Source: Marsupella aquatica (Eukaryota; Plantae; Marchantiophyta). Taken from it: a stretch of DNA of 64,000 bases. The DNA is taken from contig OZ316896.1 in assembly GCA_973895155.1 (NCBI GenBank), forward strand, positions 12,318,549 through 12,382,548, in the 5' to 3' direction. Each line of letters opens with the position of its first letter. Position 1 is the first letter of the stretch. The notes beneath the pieces are model-generated. The model was not told the DNA's origin and did not search any database. It was given only the letters and a program-made list of their open reading frames with translations. Both the position numbers and the translations under genes were made by a program. This document shows positions 1 to 44,900 of this stretch, in pieces.

Positions 1-717
1 AACACTCGTCCAGACATCTCCTTCTCAGTTGGTCTGGTGAGTAGATTCATGAGTCAACCACAACAAGCTCACCTAGATGCAGCCATGCACATCGTGCGCT
101 ACATTAGCGGCACCTTGGATCTAGGAGTGTTCTACAGCAGAGACAGTCAACTTAATCTCGAAGGCTTCACAGATTCTGATTGGGGAAATTCATGCCCTGA
201 TACTCGAAGATCCACCGGAGGATACATCTTCAAGCTGTCTGAAGGTCCCATCACATGGAGCAGCAAAAGACAGCCAACAGTGTCTCGATCGACTACGGAG
301 GCAGAATATAAGGCACTTTCAGATGGCGCCCAAGAAGGTGTGTACCTAAAGCGATTACTCGAAGAACTGGTTGGTAACACATCCTTGCCTACCAAGGTCA
401 AATGTAAAAACACTGGAATAGCAACTGATCTCGAGCAAGCTGCAGTGCCATCCCTTCAGGACTTACATTTGAGGTGCGATAACATGAGCGCTGTTAAGCT
501 CGCCAAAAACCCAGTCTTCCACGCGAGGACAAAGCACTTAGAAATTCACCATCACTTTGTACGTGAAAGAGTTTTGGAGGGAGAACTTTCAGTGCATCAT
601 GTGAAAACAGAAGACCAGGTAGCCGACATTCTGACTAAATCATTATCCAAAGCAAAGTTTCTCAGAAATAGAGATATATTAGGAATGAGGTCGGCAAAGC
701 TGCTACCACTACGATGA
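1..717 (+). CDS. pol: Copia pol C-terminus (RT end + Ty1-type RNase H), open from base 1
   Basis: TRPDISFSVGLVSRFM, GFTDSDW, RRSTGGY, SRSTTEAEY, CDNMSA, HARTKH, DQVADILTK motifs. Confidence 0.95.
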   Translation, partial: NTRPDISFSVGLVSRFMSQPQQAHLDAAMHIVRYISGTLDLGVFYSRDSQLNLEGFTDSDWGNSCPDTRRSTGGYIFKLSEGPITWSSKRQPTVSRSTTEAEYKALSDGAQEGVYLKRLLEELVGNTSLPTKVKCKNTGIATDLEQAAVPSLQDLHLRCDNMSAVKLAKNPVFHARTKHLEIHHHFVRERVLEGELSVHHVKTEDQVADILTKSLSKAKFLRNRDILGMRSAKLLPLR

Positions 718-803: not shown

Positions 804-1286
804 CTAGAGAGCTCTAGCCTGCTCTTTCTTTAAGTACAACTCGGCCTCTATCCGAGTCTTGAAAGACTTGTACTTATTGCCTCGGAAGCCACTTACTAAG
901 GGTTCTACCTCCTTCCAAGTCGTATAGATCCCTGGACGTCGGCCTCGAGCCACTGAATAGTATCGCCTTGGCAGCTCTTCTGAGAAATCTCTCACTATTT
1001 CTCCTGACAACGGGTGACAGGACTCCTCTTTATACATTGGAGCACTTGGCTCTACAGGGACTATTAGCTCCCTAGCTCGATCAGTCTCCGTTGATGCACC
1101 TGCCTGCGGCTCAATAGGTGTTTCTTCCGATTGCCCACCAAGGGGTCTCTCCTCCGGTCCTAATGAATCACTATGATTACACACTAGGTAAGCATAAACA
1201 CTCCGCGACAATGCTGAGATAAATCCCAACAAGGAAAGAACGAGTGACATCGCCGATTCCCTTAATGTCATCTCCTCCTGCGCCAT
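804..1286 (-). CDS. Antisense accessory ORF of Copia A (160 aa): N-terminal hydrophobic/amphipathic helix, acidic linker with PSAP, C-terminal RNase H1 N-terminal hybrid-binding domain (Cauli_VI/viroplasmin-like)
   Basis: YYSVARGRRPGIYTTWKEVEPLVSGFRGNKYKSFKTRIEAELYL fits the HBD pattern (YAV..GR..G.Y..W......V.GF....YK.F.T..EA..Y/F); a homolog sits at the same position in element B. Confidence 0.9.
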   Translation of the reverse strand: MAQEEMTLRESAMSLVLSLLGFISALSRSVYAYLVCNHSDSLGPEERPLGGQSEETPIEPQAGASTETDRARELIVPVEPSAPMYKEESCHPLSGEIVRDFSEELPRRYYSVARGRRPGIYTTWKEVEPLVSGFRGNKYKSFKTRIEAELYLKKEQARAL

Positions 1287-1399
1287 GGTGGTTTCTATCC
1301 AATGTACAAAATTTGATTTGGATAGATTCAGTTACCATACCGACGTTCCATATAATTATCACAGCACACTCTCCTCCTGAATCTTTGCGAGCCATGGTT

Positions 1400-1408
1400 G
1401 AGGGGAGG
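1400..1408 (+). other. Polypurine tract of Copia A
   Basis: GAGGGGAGG immediately 5' of the LTR-initial TG. Confidence 0.85.
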
Positions 1409-1738
1409 TGTTGAAACTCACGCGGTCTTGTCTCTTGCCTGCTCCCATGCCTCGCTGTCAGATGTGGTTACTGTACACTCTGGCTGCATCGGATCTTACT
1501 GACTACCTTGAGCTTGCTGCCGGTCGGTAGGCTGTCTGGTCGATCCTGTTTGACTCTGATCCTCTTTCTGTCCTATCTGGCTGTGCCCACTTAGACTGAC
1601 TACTACTTATATTCCCGGTCAGAGTTTACTTGTCGTTTTCCTTTGCTCACGCACTTGGACCCCACTCCATTCATGTATTTAAACGCACTATTGTGCCTTA
1701 CGTTAATCAAGTTTCATAATCATCTGAAAACTTCCACA
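1409..1738 (+). repeat. 3' LTR of Copia A (~330 bp)
   Basis: TG...CA ends; terminal GAAAACTTCCACA plus internal GTCGGTAGGC and CCCACTTAG shared with element B LTRs; the downstream flank resumes a sequence found uninterrupted at ~11933. Confidence 0.88.
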
Positions 1739-5504: not shown

Positions 5505-5816
5505 TGTGGAAGTTTTCAATATGTGTGATTCAACTTAATTAATCGGGAGCACTGAGGCTCATTATATACAGCTTAATTGAGGGCGCAAGGAGGCGCCAGC
5601 GGCAAGCAACCGACAGGGATAATCCCGGGATCAGACTAAGTAACTAATTACGGTTAGGACTGTGCTAAGTGGGGCGCAGTCAGACTGATCCAGAAACGGA
5701 TCTAGGGAAGACTGCCTACCGACTACTGCAGCGAGTCCGAGACAGCCAGTAAAGTAACAACTCCCGACAATGAGCCAAAGGGAGTCAGCAACGGACAGGA
5801 CTGACAAATTCCAACA
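5505..5816 (-). repeat. 3' LTR of Copia B
   Basis: TG..CA ends; PPT complement CCCCCTCTC at 5817-5825; about a dozen substitutions and 3 small indels versus the 5' LTR (by eye). Confidence 0.95.
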
Positions 5817-5954
5817 CCCCCTCTCGACCGTGGCTCGCTGTGACCACCAAGGTCGACATAAATTTAGCTGTGAGAGAGAGAAGTGACGTAGCCTTATGAG
5901 TCTACTTGATCTAAGTATATACATGACATAAGTGCACCCAGAGTCCGGACAGCC

Positions 5955-6486
5955 ATGGCACACGAGGAGGCAACGTTAAGTGACGAGAAACAAATAGAAT
6001 TTGCTACGAAATCCAGCTAACGGGGCTGCGTAAGGAATCAGTGATGCATTTGGTTCTTTCCCTGTTGGAGTTCATATCGGCGCTTTCCCGAAGTGCTTAT
6101 GACTATTTGGTATGTAGTCATGGCAGCACACCCAGAGCAGATGAGACGACTCCCCCTGTTGGGGATCCAGAGGCATCGGTGTCACTTGCTGGCACTTCGG
6201 TAGAGATTGAGACAGTTGGAGAGATGATCATTCATTAGAGCCAAGCGCTCCTGTATGCAAGGGAGATCCTGAATGCCTGCCAACAGAAGACGAAGCTCAA
6301 GATTTCTCGAAGGAGTTGCCCATAAGATATTACGCTATGGCACGAGGTCGACGCCCGGGGATCTACACTTCTTGGAAGGAGGCAGAGCCATTAGTAAGCG
6401 GCTTCCGAGGCAACAAGTATAAGTCGTTTAAGACTCGTAGCGAGGCAGAATTGTATCTAGCGAAGGAGCAAGCTAGAGCACGCTAG
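5955..6486 (+). pseudogene. Antisense accessory ORF of Copia B (frameshifted homolog of 804-1286)
   Basis: MAHEEATL.. at 5955; MHLVLSLLEFISALSRSAYDYLVC from 6044; 1-bp deletion near 6232; then LEPSAP..DFSKELPIRYYAMARGRRPGIYTSWKEAEPLVSGFRGNKYKSFKTRSEAELYLAKEQARAR*. Confidence 0.92.
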
Positions 6487-6581
6487 AAATTCAAAATAGG
6501 CTAAATAGAGCAATGTACGTAGGACGTGTTTCCCTTTTTGTTAGTGGCCTTAATGAGGAGAATTTACTCTATGGGTGTCAA

Positions 6582-9500
6582 TCATCCTGACTGCAGTTGG
6601 GTTACTGATCACTTTCCTAATACATCTCGGTTTCTAATGAACTTTATCTTCGACAGTGACTTTGTCAAGATGTCAGCTACTTGATCTTCAGATTTGACGT
6701 GATGTATAGAAAGTTCCCCTTCGAGTACTCATTCTCTTACAAAGTGGTGATGTATATCCAAATGTTTCGTTCGGGCATGGAACATTGGATTTTTTGCAAG
6801 CTTAACAGCGCTCATGTTATCACAATTTAAGTGTAAGTCTTGAAGTGTCGGGGTTGCGTTCACCAGGTCTGTTGTGACGTCACTGTTCTTGCAATGGACT
6901 TTGCTTGGAGGGGAGTCATTACTTTGCAGTTCTTCGCGCGAGTAGCCGTTTAAGATAGACTCCTTCTTGGGCACCATCCGAGAGTGCTTTGTATTCTACT
7001 TCTGTGGTGGACCGGGATACCTTTGGTTGCCTTTTGCTACTCCAGGTGACAGGACCTTTGGAGAGCTTGAATATGTATCCGCCAATTGACCTTCTCGTGT
7101 CGGGGCAGGAATTTCCCCAATCAGAATCAGTGAATCCTTCTAAGTCAAGTGGACTATCCTTGGCGTAGAATACTCCCAGATCAGATGTTCCACTGACATA
7201 GCGAACAATGTGCATGGCAGCATCAAGGTGAGCTTGTTGTGGTTGACTCATAAATCTGCTCACTAATCCAACCGAAAATGAAATGTCCGAATGCATGTTA
7301 GTGAGATATATGAGTTTCCCAACAAGTTGACTGTAATCCGTGGAGTCGATGTCCTGAGTGTTGGTCTCCATAGAGAGCTCAAGGCCTTCTGGTAACGGGG
7401 TGGCTACAGGCTTACATTTATCCAGTTGAGTTGATCTGAGTAGTGCTTCTGATGCAGTAGCATCCCCGTTTCTGTAGCAAGAAAATCAACGCCCAAATAT
7501 CTTTTTGCTCCTCCTAGATCTTTCATTTTGTAATTTGCTTTCAGCTGCTCCTTTACTTCAATTATGAGATCTATTCCACTACCAGTGAGTAGAAGATCAT
7601 CAACAAAGAGCAGAATGATTGCAATTTTTCCGTCCCTATGCATAGTATACAGATTGGGATCAAGGGAGCTACGTGTGCACCCAATTGAGCGAAGGAAGGA
7701 GTCCACTTCTTCATACCATGCTCGAGGGCTTTGCTTGAGCCCATAAATGGATTTTCTGAGTCTACAGGTCACCACCTTTTCTTGGCCTGGGGTCAGAAAC
7801 CCTAGGGGCTGCATCATGTAGATTGTTTCTCTAAGAGTGCCGTTGAGAAATGCCGTCACTACATCCATGTGTGATAAGGGCCAACCAAGAGACGATGCAA
7901 GTGCTACTATCAGCTTGACTGTAGACCACTTGACTACAGGAGCAAAGGTTTCTTCGTAGTCCAATCCCTCACGTTGCTCATGCCCCCTGGCGACTACCCG
8001 GGCCTTGAACTTGACATTCCCTTCTTGGTCAAGTTTTTCTCTAAGCACCCATCTGGCTGAAAGCACTTTCTCTCCGGGAGGGAGATTGACAAGTTCCCAG
8101 GTGCCATTTTTGCGATGTGCATCCATTTCGAGTTGCATAGCACTGACCCAGCGCGAGTCGGAGAGAGCATCATTGACTGAGATATTGTCGATAGATTCAA
8201 CAAGTAGGGCCAGGAAGAGTTGCTCGGTGGTTTCTGAGATGTATGATGTAAAATCAGAAAGCCAATAGGGGTGCAACGTCATCCTACCAGATGGTGATCG
8301 TGTTCGTTGGAGAGCTCGTTGTGATGCCCGTTGACGTGTCCGTCAGACTTGGCGCGCGTGGTTTAGGAACAGTCGTTGGAGTATCGGTGAAGGTTGATGA
8401 AGAGTCAGGAATCTCAGCTGCCTGCTCCATTGGTGAATTGTCGATGGAGTCTGAGGTCGGTGGGTCCATTTCAGGAGTAGTTGAGTCAACAATTGGGACC
8501 TGATTTGCAGTGACTAGCTCGCTATCAGAGTTGTCTTCAAACGGGAACAAGTCAAGTATGCTTTCTTGTTGATGAACTTGAGTTGTTGAGAAATCCCAAT
8601 GAGTGGACTCATCAAAGATCACATCCCGAGAGATGAGGGTTTTACCTGATTGTGGATCGAAGCAACAATATGCCTTGCTATTGTTGTCGTAGCCTATAAG
8701 CACAGTTCGGATTGATTTTGCCTGGAGCTTGTTGCGCATTTCTTTGGGTATGTGGACATGTGCTGTACTTCCTATAATACGAAAATGACTGACGCCAGGT
8801 TTGATACCCATGAGACATTCAGCGGGTGTAGAGAGATTCAAGGCTCGTGTGCTACTAACATCTATTGTTGATGTAATTGGCTGTGTTGACCAATTCTTTC
8901 CATAGGTAGGCTGGAAAGTTTGAGCCAATTGACAAACTACGTACGACATTAAGAAGGGTCCGGTTTTTATGTTCTGCTACCCCATTCTGATGAGGGGTTC
9001 CTGCTACGGTGAGCTGCCTGTGTATGCCTTGCTGGTGACAAAATGATCTGAATAAATCTGACATATACTCTCCCCCTCTGTCGCTGCGTAGACACATGAT
9101 TTTTGCACTAATTAAGAGAGGTCTTGACTTCCTGCTTGAAGATTTTGAATTTGTTTAAGGCTTCCTCTTTGGTTCTAAGAAAGTAGACCCATGAGTGTCG
9201 AGAGAAGTCATCGATGAATGTCATAATTATGTACCTTGCTCCAGAGAGAGAGGCGACCGGTAAGGGACCACAGAGGTCAGAGTGGATTAATTCCAGAGTT
9301 TTAGTTGCACAAGATGTTGCAACCTTAGGTATGCGATGACGAGATTGCTTCCCTTTTATGCAAGTCTCGCATAGTTGGTCAGTGGTAGGGAGTGAAGATG
9401 GAGCTCCCGTGATTAACTCCTTCCGGATCATGTAGCTTATACGTTGATGACTAGAGTGTCCCAAATGTTGATGCCAGAGCTCTGTTTGAGATAGTCGTGA

Positions 9501-11079
9501 TTCGGCCAGGTGACATTGAGAAGATAGCTTGGGGTGCAGCAGCGTAGTATTAGCTAGATTTCTCCCGGGAGGAAGATCTGGCAACTTCACCTTGTATAGC
9601 TTGCTACGAGGATCTCTATAGCCCTTGAGATAGGGTTGTGATGGTCTATTTAAATCAAATATATAGCAGCTAGATGAATTGAACAACACGGAGTGGCCTT
9701 GATCAGTGAACTTGCCAACGGAGAGTAAATTCCTAGTAATAGACGGTACATACAAAACATCTCGAATAGATTTATTTCCTGAAAGTGGAATACATCCGGA
9801 TCCTGTGACTGGCATTTTAGAGCCGTTGGCCGTCAGAACAGTGGAGGTAGAAGCGCCTCCAGTAAGATTCACAAAACCACTATTGTCTCGACTAATGTGA
9901 GTTGAGGCTCCACTGTCAAGAATCCAGGTCTTGTCTTCAGTGCTGTTGACATCAAGTTCACTGAGCATTGCTTCAATAGTGAGTGAAGATTTGGGATCAC
10001 TGGATTCGCCAAACTCAGAGTTGTTGTCTCCAATGTCCCCCTCAACAAAGTACGCCTTGGATGCGGGAGTGGCTTTGATGTCTTTGATTTTCGAGTGCAG
10101 GTCCTTCAACTGAGACACAAACATCGTCTTGATCTCTGTGTCAGCCGTTTTAATGAAGCAGTCAGCTTCCCAGTGGCCTCGCTTCCCACAGAAATTGCAG
10201 TTTCGTCTATCTGGTCCACCATCATATGCTCTATGAGGTCTTCCTCGGTCATGACATCCCTTTCCGCGTCCACGATGACCTCTACTTCCCTCTCCACGTA
10301 TTGGGTAAGTGAGGGCAAGCAAGGATTGCTCATCAGCTTTGTTGTGTGGTTTACGACTGAATTCTTCAGCTTGTAAATACTCCTGACTCCAGATCTGCAA
10401 AAGTGGCTAGAGGATCCTTGGCATACTGTATGACACTATAGACTGATTTGAACGCAGCCTAGCTTGCTAGCAAATTTCTTAGCACAATATGAATGAGGTC
10501 CTTGTCGTCTATTTCCTCTCCTATGCTGCCTAGTTGCATTACGTGGTACTCGATCTTCTTGAGGTAGGCCTCCACTGAGGACCCCTCACTCATGCGAGCT
10601 TCAGCAAGAGCGGACTTGAGATCCAGCTTTTGCTGGAGTGCTGATGACTCAAACTTTTGCTTAAGGATAGCCCACAGCTTGGCAGGATCCTTACTAAGCC
10701 TTCGAACGATAGGAATAATAGAAGAATGGAGGGTCTTGGTAAGTATAATGATTACCCTGTCCTTCTGCTTCTAGACGTCAGCAAGGCTCTTTGATGCACC
10801 TGGTGCGGGTCCACTGGTAGCTGCAGGTCGCTGCTGAGCATCGCCTCCTTCAGAAGATGCTGATGCTGCGCTTTGTGCTTGTGAGGGAGTATGCTGCTGG
10901 GCAGCGTTACTTCCTCCAGCTGTTGGAGTAGGTGTATTCATGGTGGGGTCGACAATCTCCCATAGGTCTCTTTCTCTCAGAATTTGCTCAACATAAAAGG
11001 ACCACACAATGTAATTGTGTGCCCCAGTTAACTTGTCGCTATCTGAGAAAGAGAGCTTGGTTGCGTCGCCTGAAGCCAT
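6582..11079 (-). pseudogene. gag-pol: gag-pol of Copia B with several stops and frameshifts
   Basis: Gag N-terminus KLTGAHNYIVW, zinc knuckle CNFCGKRGHWEADC, protease WILDSGAS, WHQHLGH..CETC, integrase HSDLCGP/LRSDRGGEY/QNGVAE, RT YEETFAPV/FVDDLL, RNase H FTDSDW/CDNMSA. Confidence 0.96.
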
Positions 11080-11129
11080 GGTGATTAACGCTTACTCTAT
11101 CAGTATGAGTCTGAGGATTCCAGAACCTG

Positions 11130-11141
11130 GCTCTGATACCA
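11130..11141 (-). other. Primer-binding site (tRNA-iMet) of Copia B
   Basis: Reverse complement TGGTATCAGAGC abutting the 5' LTR. Confidence 0.95.
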
Positions 11142-11450
11142 TGTGTAAGTTTTCAATATGTGTGAAACTTAATTAATCGGGAGCGCTGAGGCTCATTATA
11201 TACAACTTAAGTGAGAGCGCAAGGAGGCACCAGCGGCAAGCAAGCAGCCGACAGGGATAATCCCGGGATCAGACTAACTAATTACGGTTAGGACTGTGCT
11301 AAGTGGGGCGCAGTCAGATTGATCCAGAAACGGATCTAGGGAAGACTTCCTACCGACTAGTGCAGCGAGTCCGAGACAGCCAATAAAGTAACAACTCCCG
11401 CCAATGAGCCAAAGGGAGTCAGCAACGGACAGGACTGACAAATTCCAACA
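11142..11450 (-). repeat. 5' LTR of Copia B
   Basis: Direct repeat of 5505-5816, followed by TSD TGTTA. Confidence 0.95.
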
Positions 11451-13410
11451 TGTTATTCTCTCCCTCTGCGCAAAGTGAGAACTCTTCACCAACTTAAAGA
11501 AATCGTCTAGTGTAGAAATCATCTTGTTTATATCAAGGGATTCCTCATATTGATGTACCTTATAACTAGGGACGACTGTTATCATCTCCCTCTACGCAAA
11601 GTGAGAACTCTTCAGCAACTCAAAGTAAGCGTTGGTGTAGAAACGGATCCTCTATATTTTGAAAGAGAAGACGGGGCACCACATATCGTCAGCTGAGAAG
11701 TGAAATCAACGCCTCCGCTTGTGACAGATTCCAAGGCTGCAGTTGTTCTCACAAGTGAACATAATGTCGTGTGATTGGTTGGCGTGTACTATCGAGATAC
11801 CGTCTATTTGTCACTTTCATTTTTGGCTCACTGGTTCAATGCATCGAAGGACGGAAACAACTCAGCGTGAGTCTCCTCGTGGCTCCTCCAAGTGAGGGTT
11901 CGGCAAAGTGAAGAATGATGCGGTGGCCATGTGTTTCCCACAATCGTTATTTCTTCGTGTGGTAATGCAAGGAAGCGCTCAGACCCTTAGCTATTCTGAT
12001 GTATTGCAGTCAGAAAACTATATATCGAGTTCATCATAGCGATCACTCGCAGATCACAAAGAAATTTCACGAACCGATAGTGCTACTTCGAAATCACCAG
12101 TCACACAAACGATAGCAAGCTATTGACCAAACCTGTCTATGAGATAAAACTGTTGAAGCTACTCTTGATGCAAGAAGCGAAGCTATCCTTCCCGATTTAC
12201 AGCAATGGATGAGATATCAAGAAGCTATGCTGTCCGAATTGAAGAAACAACATGATTCAATTACATAGTTTTAGCTTGCGTTCGAGTACACAAATGATAA
12301 AGTATCCAACAAAACGTACCATACTTCCTAGCGTGTCAAGGAGGAGGCCTAGCGAGGGCTGGATTGAATCTTGCTTCAAAATAACGGGCCTCAGACTAGA
12401 GAGAGAAGGCACCAGCCATCACAGTGAGAGAAATCAAAGAAGCCCTTTTGTCACATTGAGGTACTTCATATCAGATTCCGTAAGCGCTTAGGCATTCAAT
12501 CCATAACACTTCAGCTCTACCAGTCTGGACTTCGTCATCAATATTTCACTTCAACTGTTTACTTTGTAATCCGCCATCGCTACTCACAAAGATATCTTCC
12601 TCTCAGATTATTACTCCCATGGCGGCTAAGAGGAGCAATGAAAGCACGACTCCTCACATATTTGCTTACTTCGGGCTCGTAACTTCCCTAAAGAACTTTG
12701 AGAAGTGTCCACAAATTCTCCTTTGAAATGCACAAACGTGCACTGACAGTTCAGTTCAATGTATCTTAGGCTGCCCCGGCTGTGCAATATCTGCCACAGA
12801 TCGAGATGGGGCAAATCTGGCCAAGAACATGCACAATCGCTCCCCAGGCCATCATTCACATAGCCGTGCATTAGGTCCCTGAGTGCAGATACCTTGCCAA
12901 TTACATAGGTGCGAATGTTACCAACAAAGGCAGAGGAATCCAAAGGGGATCTCCTCTTCTTCTGCAGGGATTGAGTCCTTTAAATCGAAACAAAACTACC
13001 AAGCTAACTTGACCTGCACAGTTGAATTGGTTCACAAAACAAAATGAACTGGCAAGATTCTTTCACCTGGTATCCTTAATTAATAGCTTGTTTCTCAATC
13101 ATGAAACAACAGTCTTGAACTAAATGCATTTTTGTGCGACCAACACGGCAGATGAGCGCTTCACTAGAACAACACAAACTGTCCAACATCACAAGTCACA
13201 CCACTCGGTATGATATCGTTTACAATAATGGTTTCAAGACATTTTGGAGACCATCAGTTCACGGCAGAGCCAAAATTTACATTTCATGAAGGTATGCATA
13301 TCTAATTGGAATCAGGGTGCCCAGGAGGGTTCACTTGGGAACTCAGCAAAACCGTCATTTTCAGGACTTTCTAGTAATCCCAGCAATACTACTTTCAATA
13401 TAAATCTTGC

Positions 13411-16400
13411 CTAAAATGGTACAGTCCAGTTTGTAGCATTGTAAATCTTCTTAACATGCTTGGATTTAGGAAATATAAATGCCAGCAGTCTCAGGGAAAA
13501 TAAACTGAAGGTCAAAATACACAAAAATCCTCCTATAGAGGCTGTGATGATAGTCAATGATCCACCGGTGGATGTAGGGTTAGCACTCACAACTGCAATG
13601 GAGCTCGAAATAAAAGCTGTAAGTACAAAAATGATTGATGGGAATAATAACGTGACTGCCATGGCCACCATAAACCGAGTTCGTTGCACTTCATCTTTCA
13701 TCTGTTGTTGTGGAACAGGAATGGATGGGATCAAGGATAACGTGATTGCAACGATTGCAAGATAAAATGACATGGTATCACAAAAGATGAATATTCTCAC
13801 CCAGAGGTTCGCATCTTGGATTTGAGAGAGATCTCCTGCAATTCCCATAGGCGGTTGGAGGGGTCCGACATATGATGCAGTTGCTACCAACGTAGCTGTG
13901 ACTGAGATTGCATTTGCTGCAGAACTCAATGTGCGTTGGGCTGAATCAAACTCCGTGGCCTGCCGTGTATACCACCAAGAAAGAAAATTTGAATTCCTGC
14001 TCAATTCACCTTGAGGATATGGAGGTTGTTTTTTCTTATTGGTCTTGAAAATATCACAACCTGCTTGCAACAATAGATTAATACAGCCTTTCCTTTCAGC
14101 TAGAGCATCATCATGTGAAATCTCTTGTTTGTCTATTAAATCATGCCGCCATTTCTCTATGTGTTCAATATTTACAAAGTGCATTAAGTTTGGCTCAAAT
14201 TTGACAATATGGATCACTTTGAGGGCATGATGAAGTGCGCTATTCCCGTCCCAGTCTTCAACATAAGGGTCACAATCAGGATCATCAAGAATCAATTTCA
14301 GCATGTCATAATTGCCAGCATTTGCTGCAATATGGAGGGCTGGCCATGGCCACTTTTCCTCTGTTCTTGACAAGTGCAGCTTGGAATTCAAGTGGTATGC
14401 ACCCTGTCACAAAATGAAAACGATCAGCATGATTCTATCCTAAGAAAGTCAAAGGAAAAATAAATCATGTGAGTTATATATGAGAAAAACTTCATAATGG
14501 TTATAATGTGGTACCATACTATAGTTTTCGCTTCCTTTTATATCTAAGGGAGCAGAACGACTCACAGATACATTGGGGATTTTTGATTATTTTCCTAGTT
14601 GGAAACTACATGCGTCAACTTAAAAATGGGATCTACGTTTTGAAAAAAGTGTGTATAAGTGTAAAATTTCAAACAATATGGCAGACTTGCACAAAAATAA
14701 TGTTCCTTTCAAAATATAATGAGAGTGCAAAGAAAAAAAAGGAAAATGCAAAGAGAACTCAAGGGTAGTTCTGGCTTAGGGGAAAAACCATTTTCCCTCC
14801 TACAATCTATCCAATACAGCATAAGCTAGAGAAAGGAGTCTAGAGTGAAACCAATAGACTGTGACTATCAGGCCATACCTAAATTTGGGGGTGGGGTGAA
14901 AAAGGAACTGGAAATGGCCACCAAGTAGGGGGCCCATGTCAAACAATAACTCACAATGAACTGGAACACAATTGCTGGTTTCAGCAACTTTAATGACTCT
15001 AATCGCCATACCTCTAACATTACAAAATAATAATGGAAAGAGAACAGGTAAGTCACCCTGAACTTATTATTATTAGGCTGCTAGACTCATCTGGTTCGGA
15101 GACTCATGCCGTTTTGGGAGACTCGCCTCTTGAACATTACAAAACAAAAATGCAGGAAGAATGGGTCTGAGTGGTCGAGCATCACGTACCAGCGGCAAAT
15201 ACCTCATCTCCTCTGGGTCCCCAACAAGTGCGGCCAGCTCCGCTGCATGAAGTTCTACACTCTTCTTACTCAACGACCGCCTATCCATAGGGGTCCAGTA
15301 GCTCCAGCGAAATACCGTTTCCAGGCCCCAATCTTCAACGAATTTTGACAACTTGTCGTAACTCCTATGTAGCCTCCAGAGTCCACTGTGGAGGATGGCC
15401 GACTGGAGGGGGCTTGCTTCAACGGTCCATGCCGCTGGCTCCTCGTTATCGCAAACAGTTCCGTCCCCCAAGCCGGTCTGGCTGTCGGCCATGTACCCAA
15501 CGAGTCTTCCGTCATTAGTCCAAGCTTGGACAACGCTGGGGATCGGGTGGCGCCATTGCTTACGAACGAGGGGCGCAAGCTTCTTGCCGCCTCCCGCAAA
15601 ATCAAGCAAGTCTCTCAGGGCCGAATATTGTCCGATCCCGAAGGCGTAGTGTACAGCCGTCCTGCCTGCGCCATCACATGCGGTCATGGCGCATTGGGCA
15701 ACCTCGTGTTCCGCTTCGCCTTTCCCTTCATCACTTCCAAGAATGCGGACGATATTCCCACTACAGTAGCGGTCAATGGCGGCACTCAACGGAGTTCTCC
15801 CCTGCCCATCCTGAAGCTTCAAGAGGAAGCGCCAAGTTGAGTCTGAGCACGACCGAACAGCCGTCCACAAGGCTCTTGCAAAGTGTAACGCCGGTGTGCC
15901 CTCTCGCTGATATTGGCAAAGCGAGAAGTGGAAAAGGTACTCCTGCCAGGGGAGGAAGTTGAAATCTCGGTCCTCTTCATACAGTCTCAAATACTCTGCC
16001 CAGCTATGCGCACCTGATAACTCATGGACGACTCGCTCCGTTGCTCCTCTTAAATTAGCCCTATGCTCCCTGTCCTTCTCGCTTTCCTCCGTGACATCAA
16101 GAGCTGGAAGTCGATTCCTTCCCATGGCGTACAATAGCATCAGGATGATCTTGCGGTTACCGTATAGTACTGCCATTGCGAACGCGGTTAGCTTGTACCT
16201 CCCATCCTTGCAGTCGAGAAGAGTTCTCTCTTTACCATTGGGATGCTCTCGTACAAAGCTGCTGTCATCGACTCGACGTTTCCATTTGTCAACCGCGAGC
16301 CGAGCAATCTCCCGACTCTTCTCGTCTCCGTCACGTTTTGACTGCCTTATGCTTGATACAGCGTTTCGAAAGCCAAGACCTCCACTCGCTGAGCCAGTGT

Positions 16401-16992
16401 GATCGACTAGACGTTTCCAATCGGCAACCGCGAGGCGAGCAATCTCCCGGCTTTGATCAACTTCCTCAGGTTCTGATCGGCTTATGCTTGGTACACCGTC
16501 TTGAAAGTTAGGACTTCCATCAGGTGCGCCAGTCTTATTTGCTGGCTGTCCGTCGCTTCTAGACACAGACTGATCAGCAACAGCTGAGCGAGTCGACTTT
16601 GCTGGCTGTCGATCACCTTCCCCCGTGGTGTTATCCTGAGAAGGATCAGCAATATTGTTGTCATTCGTTTGAGCCTCCTTAGTCTCTGCGAGATCTGGTT
16701 GACCCGTACATCTACGTCCGTCTTCGTCTTCCTTCGTTGAATATTTGCGGATGACTACCTTACAGAGTTTCAAAACTTGCTCAACGAGTTCCGCATTTCC
16801 TCGTCTCACACCCACATGAAGCGCTGTGCGCTCTTTCCATGGATCTCCCTTCCATACAAACTGTGAAGCTTCAATCCCCCATCCCACTTTTAGCAGACTT
16901 GGATGAGCTGCCAAGAGTGCCTTGACCTGCAGGCTATCTTCTTCGTCTAGTGCCTCGTACCATTGTGACAGAAGGTCGGTATCGGTTGTCAT
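13411..16992 (-). CDS. Ankyrin-repeat + PGG-domain transmembrane protein (ACD6/ITN1-like); model exons 16992-15190 and 14403-13411, ~931 aa
   Basis: Ankyrin motifs RTALHVGV, GRTPLSAA, GRTAVHYA, PALHIAA, GNSALHHA; PGG domain (ATLVATASY..LQPPMG..FIFCDTMSFYLA) with 4-5 hydrophobic helices; in-phase donor CTG|GTACGT and acceptor TGACAG|GGT. Confidence 0.88.
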
Positions 16993-17419
16993 GTTTACGC
17001 AGCAAGAACAGAATAGAACTGGTGGTAGATGCTATTATGAACTCTGGGATATTGTGAGGAAGAGCGACATGTCTGTGCGGTGAACAAAGCTGTGGATGGA
17101 GAGGCTGCCGAGACTAGAACGGAGAGAGAGAGAGAGGCTCTTTTACTCTGGCGGGCAACTGGCCAACACGGTAGGGTGGTCTTCAACTTTCCAAGATTAT
17201 AAATCCATCTCTTTCATGGGGTCGTGTCTCGAGGTCGTGATGTCCAGCGAGGTACATGAACGTTTCAGTGTCCAATATCGAGGGAGCTGTGAATGACATT
17301 AATTTTGCCAGAAGCAATATTCATGATTAAAACGAGGGCAAGGACTAAGATTGAGGGACCAACGAAGGACATTTGCCAGAAGCCGTGTTCATGATTGAAA
17401 CGAGGGCAAGTGTCCTTCC

Positions 17420-20400
17420 CAGATTCGGGATCTGATGAAATTCCAGTTCGTCATCGTACATCACACTGTAACACTTAACAATTGCCAGTCGCTGCAGGCT
17501 CACACGCTGTTATAATATTTTCGAGCCCGATTATTATAACCAGGCAATTGATTACAGACTACCATTTCCATGCCCACTATCATGCCATTGCCATTGGCTG
17601 TAAGTATGACTAGCTGTCCACGAAGAGGCTTCCGGTTAGTTCCAAACCAAAGCTGAAGTTAGTGGTTGATGTCATCAAAATAATCTACTCATTGCTGTCA
17701 TAGCGTTAGTCGAGCTTATTTCCAATCATCATTTTGCGATTACCACTGCCTTCAAAATCTGGCACTCACTGCGCCAATACTGTCACGTCTCTCAATTGGG
17801 CTAAATGTTCCGTAATCGAATCGGCCCTCTTCTTGTTGATAACTCCTGTCATCTGCCAGCCATTCCGTTCCTTGCAATGCTGTATTCAACTTGTCAAACC
17901 TTGCTGTTGTCCGCTGTTGTGTTCATCGGTATTAGACATGCTGCGGTCCTTGGTTCTATATTGGACAAGTTCACCACTCCATCGTACTTGGATCTTTTGT
18001 TTTATCCTTGCACTCTGTCCACTCTCGAGCTGATATGACTAAAACAAGGCGAATATTGTCAAACCTCACAAGTGAACGACAGGTCCACTCTGGAGATGAC
18101 TTTAGCCTAACCAACTCCGACTCCATTTCATCATCGTACACCAGAGTAGCACGTACTCTACGACTGCCAGATTTCGCATCTGATGTAATTCCAGTTCGTC
18201 ATGGTACATCGGACCGTAACATTGCCAATCGCTGCATGCCTGACATGTTACGATTTTCATGCCACGATCATGCCATTGCCATTGGCTGTAAGGCATTTTA
18301 CTATGGCTGTCCACGAAGACGCTCAAGGTTAGTTTCAAGCGTGAGAGTCATTAAAATTAATCTACTCACTGCTGTCATAGAGCTAATGAGGCATTTTTCC
18401 GAAACATTCTGCGATAACCACTGCCAGTAAAAGTGGGCACTCACTGCATCAATACGGATGTGCCCCTCAATTGGGCAAAAAGTTCAGACATCCCAAAATT
18501 GGCCCGCTTCTTTTTGATTACGCCTGTCATCTGCCAGCCATTCCGTTCGTTGCAATGCTGCAGTACTGAACTTGCCAAACTCTTGCTGTTGTCTGCTGTT
18601 GTGTACATCTTCATTGGACAAGCTCCGGCCCTTTTCAGTTCACTTGGTTCTCTAGTGGACAAGTTCATCACTCCATCCTCCTTAGATCTTTTGTTTTCTC
18701 CTTGCGCCTTGTCCACTCCCGGGTTGATATGACTTAAACAAGGCAAATGTAGTCATGCCTCACGGTGAATGACACGTCCAATTGGGGGATGACTTTAACC
18801 AAACCAACGCTGAATTTAACGTTCCTCAAAAAAGTGGTCAAGTCGAACAACAATTTTATGGCAAGATGACAAGAAAAAATGTCCTAACTCACGTACTCAT
18901 TGATGGGCAATTCGCTGGACATAATTATGGACAAAACGTATGCAGGTCGACATATGGGCACCTATGGACATAATTCGGTGAACGATGCAACTTGGTCCCC
19001 TGTGAAGAGTTCCGGGTTTGTGTTATGTTGTCTTGCTCAGCAATGCGTGCATTACCCTTCAGTTGGTTGAAATCAATCTTGAAGCATTGAATTCTCTCTC
19101 TAGTGAAAGGGAGAAGTTCGTCATTGAGGGCAGTTCACAACAGGCACTTTCAAATGCCAGGCGTCTAGTACTGACGGGAAATAGCCCAAAGATGGGAGAG
19201 ACAAAATCTGTGCTGCATTTCAAGCTTTCCACAGATATCCATTCGGTTTAGCTTCCAGTCGAAGAGCATTAAATTATTGAATACAGATTTCTGTGACAAA
19301 ATGGAACTCGTGGAGTTTCAAAGCTTTCTTTCATCTGCTCGCCTCCATTGGCTGGGCTCTCACTCATGAAACAACTGGGTAGAACTACATGCATTTTTTT
19401 GTCAATAACACGGCAAAAATAATGAGCGCTGAGACGGATCAGTAATGTTGTTGTCATCCATTTGAGCCTCCTTACTCTCTGCGAGATCTGGTTGACCCGT
19501 ACATATACGTCCGTCTTCGTCTTCCTTCGTTGAATATTTGCGGATGACTACCTTACAGAGTTTCAAAACTTGCTCAACGAGTTCTGCATTTCCTCGTCTC
19601 ACACCCACATGAAGCGCTGTGCGCTCTTTCCATGGCTCTCCCTTCCATTTAAACTGTGAAGCTTCATCTCCCCATCCCACTTTTAGCAGACTTGGATGAG
19701 CTGCCAAGAGTACCATGACCTGCACGCTATCTTCTCTGAAAAGTGCCTCGTACCATTCTGACAGGAGTTCGTTGTCGGTTGTCATCTTCACGCAGCAAGA
19801 AAAGAACAGACAATCGCAATGTTCCAATAGAACTGGTGGTAGATGCTATTATGAACTCTGGAATACTCTAAGGAAGAGCGACATGTCTGTGCGTTGAGAA
19901 AGCTGTGCATGGAGACGCTGCCGAGACTAGAACGGAGAGAGAGGCTCTTCTACTCCGGCGGGCAAGTGGCCAAAACGATGGGGCGGAATCGAATTTTCCA
20001 AGATTAATTAATCGTTTTCAGGGGCCAGATCTCGAGGTCATACTGTCCAGCAAGGTATATGAGCATTTCGAGGACGAATATCGAGGGACCTGTGAAGGAC
20101 AGATGCCACAAGCATGGTTCAATATTAAAATGAGGGCAAGGAACTAGACCCAGGACCAATATTGAGGGACCTGTGAATGACATTTGCCAGAAGCGCTGTT
20201 CATGACTAAAACGAGGGCAAATGTCCTACATAGATTTCCCATTCCTACACAGATTCCGCATCTGATGAAATGAGATTACAGTTCAGCATCGGACATCTGC
20301 CTGTAGCACTTTACCATTGCCAAATTCCAAATTTGATGATATTCCAGTTCATCATCGTTCATCAGACTAGCACCCGTTAACATTACCAGTCGCTGCTGGC

Positions 20401-21490
20401 CATTGCATTATTATAATCCACCATCATGCCACTGCCATTGGCTGTGAGGCGTGTGACTGGCTGACCAGGAAGAGGCTCACTGTAATAATTGTTGATGATG
20501 TCAAGCTTAATAACATGTGCTCGGTCTCGTTCAAGATTGAGACTAATTAAATTAATCCACTCACTGCTGGGTAGAGCTGATCGAGCTTTTTTCGAGCATT
20601 CTGCAATTACCACTTAAAAAATGGCGCTCACTGCACCAATGCAATCCATGTCTTTCAGTTGGGCAAAAAGTTCAGAGATCCCATCAGCCGGCTTCTTGTT
20701 GACAACTCCTGTCATCTGCGAGCCATTCCGTTCCTGTCATGCTGCTTTCGAGCTAGTGAACCTATTACTGTGGTCTTCGTGTTCATTGGTTTAGCTTTGG
20801 CTCTTTCCAGTTGGTTCTCTATTGGAGAGGTTCATCACTCCTTGGATCTTTTGTTTTCTCCTTCCGCTCTGTCCACTCTTGAGGTGATACGAGTAAAACA
20901 ACGCAAATGTGGTGAAACCTCACAAGTGAATGACACGTAGATTCTGGGGATGATTTTCGCCAAACCAACGGCGATTTCACATTCCCGAAAAAAGTAGTGA
21001 AGTCGACGAGCAATTTGATGGCAAGATAATAGGAGAAAAAGTCACAACTTCACTACTCATTGATGGGCAACACCACTCATTGACGGGCAAAGCTTGCATC
21101 TCCAAAACGTGACACAATTCGGTGCGCGATGCAAATTGGTCCCCTAGGAAGTGTTCTGGGTTTGTTATCTTTGTTTTGCCCAGCAAGGCTGCATTACCCT
21201 TCACTTGGTTGGAATCAATCTTGAAGCATTGCATTCTCTGTGTAGTGCAGGGTAGAAGACCTTCATTTGAGGCAATCCACAACAGGCGCTTTCAAATGAA
21301 AGGCGTCTAGTACTGACGGAAAATAGTCCACAGGACAAAATCTGTGCTGGATTTCAAGCTGTCCACAGATACCCATTCAAGTTTGCTTCCACTAGAGTTC
21401 TAAATTCTTGAATACAGATTTCTCAACTATTTACAGGACAGAGCTCTCTGCCGGGTGACAAAATGGAACTCGTCGAGTGTCAAAACTTTT
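17420..21490. repeat. Segmental/tandem duplications upstream of the ankyrin gene: ~16636-19327 repeated at ~19428-21490; an internal ~700-bp unit is present 3 times (~17420-18120, ~18170-18820, ~20250-20990)
   Basis: CCTGTCATCTGC.AGCCATTCCGTTC x3; GGCGTCTAGTACTGACGG..ACAAAATCTGTGCTG x2. Confidence 0.85.
19402..19785 (-). pseudogene. 5'-only duplicate of the ankyrin-PGG gene (first ~120 codons)
   Basis: MTTDNELLSEWYEAL..WKERTALHVGVRRGNAELVEQVLK..DPSQ nearly identical to the 16992 N-terminus, then homology ends. Confidence 0.9.
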
Positions 21491-38677: not shown

Positions 38678-39994
38678 ATGGCGGACAACGGGGGGGAGAC
38701 GGACAAGAATATCGAGATATGGAAGATAAAGAAGCTAATCAAGGGTTTGGAATCCGCCAGGGGCAATGGAACGAGTATGATATCGCTCATCATGCCTCCC
38801 CGGGATCAAATCTCTCGTGTTACGAAAATGCTGGGTGATGAGTTCGGGACAGCTTCCAACATTAAGTCTCGTGTGAACCGACAGTCAGTGCTGGGCGCCA
38901 TAACGTCGGCCCAACAAAGGCTAAAGCTGTACAACAAGGTGCCTCCCAACGGGCTAGTGCTGTACACGGGAACTATCGTTACGGACGATGGCAAAGAGAA
39001 GAAGGTGACCATAGATTTTGAGCCCTTCAAGCCCATCAATGCGTCATTGTATCTCTGTGACAACAAATTCCACACCGAGGCGTTGAATGAACTTTTAGAG
39101 TCGGACGATAAGTTCGGATTCATTGTCATGGATGGAAACGGAACACTCTTTGGTACGTTGAGCGGTAACACCAGAGAAGTTCTGCACAAGTTCACTGTAG
39201 ATCTTCCAAAGAAGCACGGTCGTGGAGGGCAGTCTGCTCTTCGTTTTGCCAGGCTTCGAATGGAGAAGAGGCATAATTACGTGAGGAAAACGGCGGAGTT
39301 GGCCACCCAGTTCTTCGTCAATCCGGCCACCAGTCAGCCGAATGTCGCAGGGCTCATCTTGGCTGGTTCTGCGGACTTCAAGACAGAGCTTAGCCAGTCG
39401 GACATGTTCGATCCACGGCTTCAAGCCAAGGTTCTAAACGTTGTCGATGTGTCATATGGCGGAGAGAATGGGTTCAGCCAAGCCATCGAATTGTCGGCAG
39501 AGATTCTATCTAATGTGAAGTTCATCCAAGAGAAAAGATTGATAGGGAAGTATTTTGAAGAAATTAGTCAGGATACAGGCAAGTATGTGTTTGGAATTGA
39601 CGATACCTTGAAGGCTCTGGAAATGGGGGCTGTAGAGACTCTCATTGTATGGGAGAACCTGGAAGTGAATCGCTACATTCTGAAAAATGGGGTAACTGGG
39701 GAGCTTGTGGTTCAGCATTTCAACAAGGAACAGGAGGCGGATCAATCGAACTTTAGAGATTCGGAGACACAGGCGGAGCTAGAGGTGCAAGAGAAGATCT
39801 CTTTACTGGAATGGTTTGCCAACGAGTACAAGCGTTTCGGTTGTACTCTTGAATTCGTGACGAACAAGTCTCAAGAGGGTTCACAGTTTTGCAGAGGATT
39901 TGGAGGCATCGGAGGCATCCTTCGTTACCAACTCGATATGCGTACCTTTGACGAGCTGTCTGATGACGAACAGGTCTACGACGAAGACGATTAG
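38678..39994 (+). CDS. eRF1: Eukaryotic peptide chain release factor 1 (438 aa, intronless CDS)
   Basis: [15 protein letters not shown] and GRGGQS motifs; full-length plant-type sequence. Confidence 0.99.
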
Positions 39995-41956: not shown

Positions 41957-44900
41957 CTACCGCTAACATTAGCTAAGTCCTAACCCAAGTTAACCTAACT
42001 ATAGTTAGCTCATGAGTCACAAGACTAGAGCAATATCTAACAAACTCCCCCTTGACTCTTGTCTTGGGGACTGAACTAAATGTCATCATATGGAATCCTC
42101 AGCGGGAAGTTCTAGACAATCACCAAACCAGGTCTCCCCCTAAAAACCACAAGGGTTAACTAAGGGTTAACTAGAACTAAGCCGTAGCCTAACAAGAATG
42201 AGTAATCCATATACAAATAGTCACACATTGCTAAATAACTCTACTTACACTACAACTGCAAAACCTGCAAAGTAGCACGGTGTCTTGAGAAACTCTCCAA
42301 AGGAATCACTTTGGTAAAGGCATCAACGGGATTGAGCATTCCATCAATCTTGACTAGCTCAAAAGTTTTATCAGACACTGCTTGCCTGATAAAGTGGTAC
42401 CTGATATCAATGTGCTTCACCCTGCTATCCATCACCTGGTTAGCAGCCAAGTGAAGAGCACTCTAACTATCACAGTTTAGAGACATTTTGTCATGCTCTA
42501 AACCCATTTCCGTGATCAACTTGTCCAACCAAATTGCTTCCTTTGTTGCTTCTGTTGCTGCAACATACTCTGCTTCTGTAGTAAACTGAGATATACACTT
42601 CTGCAAGATAGATTTCCAACTAATGCATCCTCCTCCAAGAGAAAATACAAACCCAGTTGTAGACCTCCTTGTGTCCAGACAGCCTCCATAGTCAAAATTT
42701 ACATAGCCAACTAACGTTCTATCCGATCTATTATCAAATAGTAATCTATAGTCCTGTGTTCCCTTCAGATACCTGAGAATCCACTTCACAGCTTCCCAAT
42801 GTACCTTCCCTGGATTTGACATGAATCTGCTAACCTTGCCCATCGCTAGGGCCAAGTCAGGCCTAGTACAAGTCATCAAATACATCAGACTGCCTACTGC
42901 CTTCTCATAAGGAATCTTAGCCATCAGACCTTTCTCCACAGCATCCGTAGGAGAGAAAGCCGATGATAACTTGAAATGTGAAGCTAAAGGAATACTCACT
43001 GGCTTATAGTTTTCCATGTTGAATCGTGCAAGTACTTTCTCGCATATTGGCCTTGACTCAAGCACAACTGTCCAGTATCATATCATCCACATAAATAACC
43101 AGAATGATGAACCCAAATACATCATTCTTGATTGATTTCGTATACACACAAGGACCATACACCATCCTTGTATAACCTTGAGCAAGCATGAAATCATCAA
43201 ATCGCTTGTTCTACTGTCTGGGAGACTGCTTCAATCCATACAAGGACTTGAGCAATCTCCAAACTAAGTTCTCTTGGCCCTTCTTCATAAAGCCTAGTGG
43301 TTGTCTCATGAAGATCATCTCTTCCAAGTTGCCATAGAGAAAAGCAGTAACAACATCCATCTGATCCATCACCAGACCAAAAAATATAGCACAAGCTGAC
43401 ACAAGATCTGAATTGTGGAACACTTAGCCACTGGTGAAAAGACCTCATTGTAATCCACTCTTTTTTCCTGAGTGAATCCCTTGGCAACAAGCCTTGCCTT
43501 GTAGATCTTATCTCCACCCTCTGAAGGACTGTCCTTCAACTTGTAAATCCACTTGCTGTCCACCACTTACTGACCTCTTAGAAGCTCCACCAGCTTCCAT
43601 GTCTTATTTTCACTCAAAGATTGCAACTCCCTTTGCATTACTGCATTCCACTCATGTTTCTGCTCTAAAGCACAAGCCTCACTGTACGAAGAAGGCTCTC
43701 CTTCTTCCAAGATCAAAGCCATGTCATCTTTATCAGGTGCAATGTCAATATCATCTAGCTTAGATGAGTCTGCCCATTGACCATACCTGGTAGGAGCTCT
43801 AGTAGAACGACTGGAAGTTCTTCTAGTAGATGACTCAGGCTGATCTATTGCTGTTGCTGGCTGAATTTGAGGTACCCCAAGAACAATCTGCTCCTCTTGT
43901 TCCATCACAAGAACCAGCTCCAAGCCCAGAGCTTCTCCATCTTTCCTGTCATGAACAACATCATGACTAATCTCCCCCTCAACCCAGTCCGGGATGGGAG
44001 ACTTCCCCTTGTCAGTATAAGAGTCCTGAGAACTCTCCCCCTCCTTTGATGATCTGGACTCATTAAAGGACACATCTCTACTGATAATTAGCTTATAGGT
44101 TACTGGATCCCATAACCTATAACCCTTCACACCTTTCTGATAGCCAAGGAAAATGCACTTCTTTGACTTGGACTCCAGCTTGGATCGAAGCAAATAAGTT
44201 GCAGTGTTGACAGCTTCAGCCCAAAACTCATGTGGTAAGCATGATTGACTCAACATACTCCTCGAGTGGTCCAATAGTGTTCGGTTGAGTCTCTCAAAAA
44301 CACCATTCTGCTGAGGAGTATAACTTGTTGTGAGATGGCGGGTAATCCCCTGCTCCTTACAATCCGTTCCAAATTCCCTGAAACTATATTCACCGTCGTT
44401 ATCCGATCAAAGATATTTCACCTTGTTACCAGTCTGATTTTCAACTTGGGCTTTCCACTCCTTAAAAGTGGCAAAAACATCAAACTTACGGTGTAGAAAG
44501 TATATCCACACATACTTTGAGTAATCATTTATGAACGTGACATAGTATAACCGTCCAGAATGTGAGGGAGTAGGGGCTGGACCCCACACATCACTATGTA
44601 CATACTCAAGTACCTCCTTGCTGGTGTGAGTTCCAACTCCGAAGGGTTTTCTGTGCTGCTTCCCAAGCACACAGTGCTCACAGAAATCTAACTTACTAGA
44701 CTGCAAATTAGAAATCAAAGCTCTTTTCAGAAGTACAGCCAAACCTTTTTCACTCATGTGACCTAGCCAGAAATGCCACAGCCAGGCCGTCTCCTCATGA
44801 GATAAGGTTACATTGGCTTTATCACATACTACTCTGCCCTCCAAAACATACAAATTTTTGTGCCTCTTTCCCTTCAACACAACCTTAGTACCGGTTGAAA

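Follow-up and report, generated by a model that had tools for sequence, protein, structure and literature searches.

An antisense gene for a stand-alone hybrid-binding domain protein in Copia retrotransposons of the liverwort Marsupella aquatica

The locus and its Copia elements

The window, i.e., the whole 64-kb stretch of Marsupella aquatica DNA analysed here, contains three Copia retrotransposons (Table 1). Element A is present with the 3' end of pol, whose stop codon lies at 715-717, and continues to its polypurine tract (PPT) and 3' LTR. In public contigs, the A-type LTR of another copy ends at the base equivalent to 1738 and a Met-tRNA-type PBS follows, which confirms the LTR end. Element B is complete in outline. 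Its LTRs (TG...CA) differ by 11 substitutions in 304 aligned bases, and a Met-tRNA-type PBS, a PPT and a matching 5-bp TSD are all found; for A, the PPT and 3' LTR are seen in the window and the PBS is taken from the A-type contig. The domains of B follow the order gag-PR-INT-RT-RH (DUF4219, Pol_BBD, gag_pre-integrs, a weak rve, RVT_2 with E 1e-66, then RNase H), and its gag-pol is split into several frames. This order and the RVT_2-type RT place the elements in Ty1/Copia, the 5' part of A lying outside the window. A search of the ESM Atlas returned generic Streptophyta RVT_2 clusters only. In the available part of the REXdb survey (PMC6317226), Bryco and Osser are reported to have a half-tRNA-Met PBS, unlike the full-length Met-type PBS found here.

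Elements A and B are 71% identical over 1-717 (RNase H) and their LTRs are 58% identical, compared with 48% for shuffles; by these values they are different families. The RNase H of A (~364-468, +) and of B (~6835-6935, -) carries an insertion of ~25 aa before the third catalytic Asp, which is missing from the distant Copia. The sequence of the insertion is variable, and it may mark the lineage or act as a docking loop. A duplication of 92-96% identity, with one copy after the 3' LTR of A and the other just outside the 5' LTR of B, suggests either a segmental duplication at this locus or a further repeat. The window also holds three further loci with TPR and SET, ankyrin-repeat and eRF1 coding sequence.

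Table 1. Positions of the elements, the antisense frames and other features in the window
Feature	Position	Strand	Basis or remark
Element A, pol 3' end (end of RT, RNase H)	1-717	+	ORF translation
Antisense accessory ORF of A, 160 aa, intact	804-1286	-	ORF translation, Pfam, codon comparison
Hybrid-binding domain (HBD), PF01693, residues 108-151	834-965	-	Pfam, phmmer, AF2 model, superposition
Acidic linker, predicted disordered	984-1166	-	weakly conserved
N-terminal hydrophobic helix, residues 8-40 (predicted)	1167-1265	-	pLDDT 83-97; family-conserved
TATA-like word, weak candidate internal promoter	1351-1356	-	~70 nt before antisense ATG of A
PPT of A	1400-1408	+	
3' LTR of A	1409-1738	+	TG...CA
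Duplicated segment	1825-2252 and 12003-12433		
Element B, complete outline, gag-pol broken	5505-11450	-	LTRs, PBS, PPT, TSD
LTRs of B	11450-11142 and 5816-5505	-	
PBS of B	from 11141	-	
PPT of B	5825-5817	-	
Antisense ORF homolog of B, two frame breaks	5955-6486	+	helix and HBD codons kept
Ankyrin-repeat gene pieces	13411-21333		tandemly duplicated
TPR + SET-domain ORF, 1388 aa	22130-26296	-	intronless; internal tandem repeats
eRF1 gene	38678-39994	+	intronless
Third, distant, degenerate Copia	~42050-46275	-	RNase H 35% identical to A; internal control

The antisense open reading frame

An earlier note on this DNA had described an intact frame for 160 aa between the pol stop and the PPT of element A, on the opposite strand, and the frame is present as described. 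Its start codon is the ATG in ACCACCATGG. When 718-1398 was shuffled 2000 times, an ATG ORF of at least 160 aa arose by chance in 2 cases. The note had also placed a homolog at the same position in element B. Location and orientation hold, since the homolog lies between the pol end and the PPT, antisense to pol, with its stop codon at 6484-6486; what the note did not mention is that the reading frame is broken twice, by a 53-nt insertion near the start and by a second change at ~6211-6238, in the linker. Reading the 53-nt insertion as an intron was rejected by inspection, as no GT-AG excision keeps the adjacent conserved residues. The antisense frame is the only stop-free one of the six in both copies; the other five contain 2-5 stops.

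Initiation of the antisense transcript on the side of the 3' LTR, as proposed in the note, is doubtful because a transcript that starts within the LTR would include 9 upstream ATGs in A and 5 in B. A TATA-like word precedes the ATG in both elements, by ~40 nt in B, at positions that do not align between them, and these words are a weak hint of an internal promoter. Antisense promoters are described in other elements, e.g., AtRE1 and Mdoryco1-1 (PMC7264820).

The hybrid-binding domain

The C-terminal part of the ORF protein matches PF01693 with E 3.4e-18 and 66 bits, against a cut-off of 21, and all nine relatives tested also pass the gathering cut-off of the family. In the PDB, phmmer matches were the yeast (1qhk) and human (3bsu) RNase H1 HBDs only (three distinct sequences). 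The predicted fold is beta-beta-alpha-beta-alpha (E109-112, E119-121, H124-131, E139-142, H145-159), and the AF2 model superposes on the human HBD-hybrid complex 3bsu with an rmsd of 0.7-0.8 A over 45-47 columns. Profile and human structure thus agree on the HBD that had been read from the sequence alone. The proposed stand-alone, non-catalytic layout is borne out as well: PF01693 is the sole Pfam family in the ORF and in the nine relatives, and the stop codon, at the same place in A and B, comes 9 residues past the HBD, so that an RNase H1 enzyme with the catalytic domain in the same chain is not encoded. The nearest ESM Atlas clusters to the protein are fungal PF01693 proteins (top score 0.92), which carry no family-level information. 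A tree of 84 of 196 HBDs (59 columns, quick method) places 11 family rows in two groups and leaves 53 of 81 inner branches open and the origin unresolved.

Ten rows were compared in the register of the human residues, fixed by the phmmer alignment. The equivalent of Y29 is Y in all ten, that of W43 is W in nine, that of F58 is F or Y in nine and that of K59 is K in eight; we take W43, F58 and K59 to be hybrid-contact positions of the human domain. The equivalent of K60 is S or A in every row, and S is also common there in the RNase H1-type HBDs retrieved for comparison. An Arg in the RNA-facing loop is invariant. Because the Y29, W43, F58 and K59 equivalents are largely kept, the domain is likely a working duplex binder, whose specificity could go either way between hybrid and dsRNA. 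According to the available text of PMC7657459, the human HBD contacts the hybrid via Y29, K60 and the main chain of R52/A55, with K60 touching the DNA backbone; the human and fly HBDs favour hybrid by one to two orders of magnitude, whereas for the yeast HBD tighter binding to dsRNA than to hybrid is reported.

This ambiguity bears on the possibility that the protein is an anti-silencing factor, the HBD of which would coat dsRNA and block access of Dicer/DRB. The ORF lies within the internal region on the opposite strand; its mRNA would be fully complementary to the genomic RNA of the element, so the element itself would make dsRNA. The replaced K60, the invariant Arg and the yeast preference would also fit, and caulimovirus P6 proteins are the top viral fold matches. 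However, the strong preference of the human and fly domains for hybrid argues in the other direction, and the long P6 alignments have an rmsd >19 A, which means that only the HBD matches P6. The analogy with silencing suppression by CaMV P6, drawn in the note, is also weakened. In the available part of PMC3836500, suppression maps to domain D-I of P6 and survives the miniTAV deletion (aa 166-201), which abolishes replication. An anti-silencing role is judged unlikely.

The N-terminal helix, the linker and the protein family

The note had overlooked the conserved hydrophobic helix at the N-terminus. Its 19-residue Kyte-Doolittle maximum is 1.65-2.11 in six of eight sequences, which is the transmembrane range, and a central Glu lies within the helix of element B and of P0023. 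The predicted helix is possibly a membrane anchor, an oligomer helix or a partner-binding helix. No helix match was found among the RNase H1-type proteins retrieved.

Among the best 150 phmmer matches from 1.84 billion representatives, five proteins (P0001, P0023, P0057, P0072 and P0091) align from the N-terminus through the HBD. P0031 also matches the first 44 residues of the element A protein, and P0002, P0095 and P0113 are shorter or partial proteins with the HBD signature only. Identity of the family to the element A protein is 32-53%. The six full-length outside clusters consist of the same three parts, namely the hydrophobic helix, a linker of 50-70 residues that is acidic (net charge -5 to -12) and the HBD, which is basic, and a second Pfam family was found in none of the nine family proteins tested. 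The sole named member (CAM6101554.1) comes from the liverwort Calypogeia fissa; the remainder are Logan predictions. Linkage of the HBD gene to Copia is seen in elements A and B and in a third lineage from contigs (see below), the outside clusters being known as proteins alone.

No longer, fused form of the protein turned up in 7,994 candidates of 441-2000 aa, a weak result in that the companion search missed four known family members. At 82 HBD loci of metagenome or viral contigs, tblastn gave no match to the RH, RT or integrase of the element; in each of the 11 such loci inspected, the gene is of RNase H type and its HBD is N-terminal or internal, and two further viral contig scans for HBD-linked elements were empty. 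Three more distant stand-alone HBD proteins (P0155, P0157 and P0156) have a comparable leader-linker-HBD layout, and the C-terminal ends of P0155 and P0157 carry a CxxC motif. The helix profile does not detect any of the three, so they may represent a separate acquisition.

The helix is also relevant to the proposal of a nuclear R-loop binder, which would protect or resolve R-loops at element loci or tether the integration complex to R-loop-rich chromatin. Chromodomains, which target some Gypsy elements, offer a parallel for such tethering. Constructs containing the HBD bind R-loop substrates (PMC7657459, available part), and other proteins of antisense extra ORFs are nuclear, e.g., Grande GENE23 (PMC7264820). 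Against this stands a helix hydrophobic enough for a membrane anchor, and the R-loop proposal is considered quite unlikely.

Selection on the antisense frame and further copies

To compare codons, each piece of B was set in its own frame against A; this is a single pairwise comparison, with codons picked by local protein alignment. Over 56 codons the HBD is 88% identical in amino acids, with pS 0.65, pN 0.07 and pN/pS 0.11 (95% bootstrap 0.04-0.22), and differences at the three codon positions number 7/4/26. For the helix (33 codons) pN/pS is 0.26 (0.13-0.42), and for three pieces of the pol RNase H it is 0.07-0.10, so that selection has kept the antisense frame with roughly the same strength as the enzyme of the element. 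The mirror frame on the pol strand also gives a pN/pS of 0.26, an expected echo, yet it contains stops. The spacers either side of the ORF score 0.45-0.47 between A and B versus 0.43-0.45 when shuffled. The contrast between frame and spacers is marked. With 65-75% of synonymous sites different, the codon pattern shows that the antisense frame was maintained as protein while the A and B lineages neared synonymous saturation.

Further copies were sought in contigs from four DNA runs of two studies, compared at 80% likeness. One contig (record 10/24, 2713 nt) is collinear with 16-368, 454-690 and 830-973; other DNA replaces the spacer that separates pol from the HBD, and the HBD DNA has the same position and orientation as in element A. 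Element B is marked by a 3-nt shortening at 369-454; the contig does not have it and thus represents a third element lineage. In an A-type contig (9/23) the RNase H part has no gap, and the antisense ORF is broken by a 14-nt insertion at 1194. The insertion is a plant telomere-type repeat, seen in contigs of runs X2 and X4 and as loose ends in X3, and possibly reflects telomerase-type healing of a break.

Purifying selection between A and B and HBD DNA in the third lineage uphold the view, already taken in the note, of an accessory gene that is not a one-off capture. A neutral passenger, i.e., a captured fragment of host RNase H1 or of a caulimovirid that has not yet decayed, would agree with the broken state of two of the three near-complete copies (B and contig 9/23, the window copy A being intact), and a one-off capture of PF01693 is reported for one fungal Helitron copy in the available part of PMC4289320. 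It is largely refuted by the codon comparison, in which the HBD stays nearly constant over strongly diverged synonymous sites; the shared stop codon position and a helix that the retrieved RNase H1-type proteins do not match also speak against it, and we regard a passenger as extremely improbable.

Since one A-type contig has a broken ORF, the ORF may be dispensable in cis. Among the recent variants within the ORF that were listed (40 of 267 variants listed), 8 of 10 are non-synonymous, as expected from drift in recently inserted copies. It is also conceivable that the element keeps its own copy number down through the protein or the antisense RNA, by competition with RNase H for the hybrid. 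An HBD with no catalytic activity would readily compete in this way, the A-type contig with the broken ORF occurs at substantial depth (depth is not copy number), and Ty1 is restricted by antisense RNAs (PMC12786077, available part). However, for a restriction gene carried by the element to stay under purifying selection in the long term, selection at the level of the host is required, and self-restriction appears very unlikely.

A possible helper of replication

The best explanation of these data, the probability of which we put just short of even, is that a Copia clade uses the antisense frame between pol and PPT to encode a helix-linker-HBD protein, a trans-acting, non-catalytic, duplex-binding helper of replication. 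Expression is proposed to run through a short antisense mRNA whose promoter would probably lie in the 120-nt gap beside the PPT. The basic HBD would grip RNA:DNA hybrid and have a weaker hold on dsRNA; tethering, be it to a membrane, to a partner or to another molecule of the same protein, would fall to the hydrophobic helix, and the flexible acidic linker would let the HBD reach the duplex. The likeliest substrate would be the RNA:DNA hybrid that forms during reverse transcription. Cellular RNase H1 carries an HBD in cis, the RNase H of the element has none, and the protein would provide one in trans. A helper is favoured because the element must make a long RNA:DNA hybrid, because its own RNase H has no HBD, and because of the CaMV miniTAV result described above. 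That deletion may or may not fall within the HBD and could also remove translational transactivation. Against a helper, the protein would have to enter the particle, and the replaced K60, the broken ORF in two of the three near-complete copies and the mostly non-synonymous recent variants also count against it. No HBD frame was found within the 197 nt between the pol stop and PPT of the distant third Copia, so Copia replication in this host has no general need of the gene.

A broader proposal is given a probability somewhat below even: a bryophyte-wide Copia clade would carry a minimal P6-like helix-plus-HBD factor that binds RNA:DNA or dsRNA and is needed for efficient transposition or silencing evasion.

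Comparison with known systems

No description of an HBD gene in Copia was found in the full-text literature searched, which agrees with the note; subscription papers, Repbase entries and supplements could hold one. In their available parts, PMC12786077, PMC11363490 and bioRxiv 10.1101/572842 contain no precedent. The REXdb survey counted extra ORFs of at least 250 codons in 582 Copia elements; in the available part of this source, PF01693 is not listed in the extra-ORF table (domains in at least five elements) and the words Marchantia and liverwort do not occur in the main text (PMC6317226). As 160 codons fall below this cut-off, similar genes were possibly missed systematically. The arrangement thus appears to be new within the literature searched, antisense accessory ORFs and the RNase H1 HBD being already known. 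The sense env-like eORF-3'F of SIRE elements has at least 250 codons and is heterogeneous, with no CDD domain listed (PMC6317226, available part).

The closest likeness in arrangement is found in Ty3/Gypsy. The antisense orientation, the placement between pol and the 3' LTR and the conservation among copies and families put the ORF in the aORF-3R class, together with Grande gene23, RIRE2, Retand (Transposase_28) and Ogre (plant mobile domain), which share its position and orientation and are conserved across copies. Antisense extra ORFs are described in Grande, RIRE2, Retand, PvRetro13 and Boty with their function stated as unknown and no HBD mentioned; a retrovirus-like accessory role was proposed, and Grande has its own upstream promoter (PMC7264820). 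Retand domains include TRP28, SMC and others (PMC11963269, available part). The Gypsy elements have long 3' regions and other domains, whereas the present element is a 5.9-kb Ty1/Copia with a 3' region of ~680 nt, and antisense accessory genes are extended to Copia. What antisense extra ORFs do in plant LTR retrotransposons is still open (PMC7264820), largely since their products have little in common with proteins whose biochemistry is known. In contrast, the HBD is a domain with known structure and ligand; its solved nucleic-acid complex makes point mutants and binding assays straightforward. If the broader proposal above is correct, this antisense accessory gene would be the first in any retrotransposon with a ligand predictable from a solved structure.

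With the RNase H1 HBDs (human 3bsu, yeast 1qhk) the protein shares sequence, predicted fold and the Y29, W43, F58 and K59 equivalents. It differs in that no catalytic domain is present, the HBD follows a hydrophobic helix and takes up the C-terminal part, S/A stands in place of K60 and the gene is transposon-encoded. Caulimovirus P6 is sense-oriented. P6/TAV resembles the present case in that a reverse-transcribing element encodes it as a separate gene, under a promoter of its own (a candidate one in the Copia case), and in that a short helix at the N-terminus is combined with an HBD (PMC3836500, available part). However, P6/TAV has ~520 aa and domains D-I to D-IV, and only the HBD of the 160-aa protein superposes on it, so the ORF is not a P6 member; the likeness of the helices is one of layout alone. 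Retrotransposons have also taken part of cellular RNase H as the aRH of Tat Gypsy and plant L1 elements (PMC4408406, available part), the capture by Tat elements being described in the available parts of PMC4408406 and PMC13468544. The aRH is a catalytic domain in frame within pol, whereas here the binding domain alone forms a separate antisense gene. After the Tat/L1 catalytic domains and caulimovirus P6, this makes three cases in which a reverse-transcribing element has borrowed a part of RNase H1 and, if the broader proposal is correct, it would represent a split-RNase-H1 design with the catalytic and binding domains on opposite strands.
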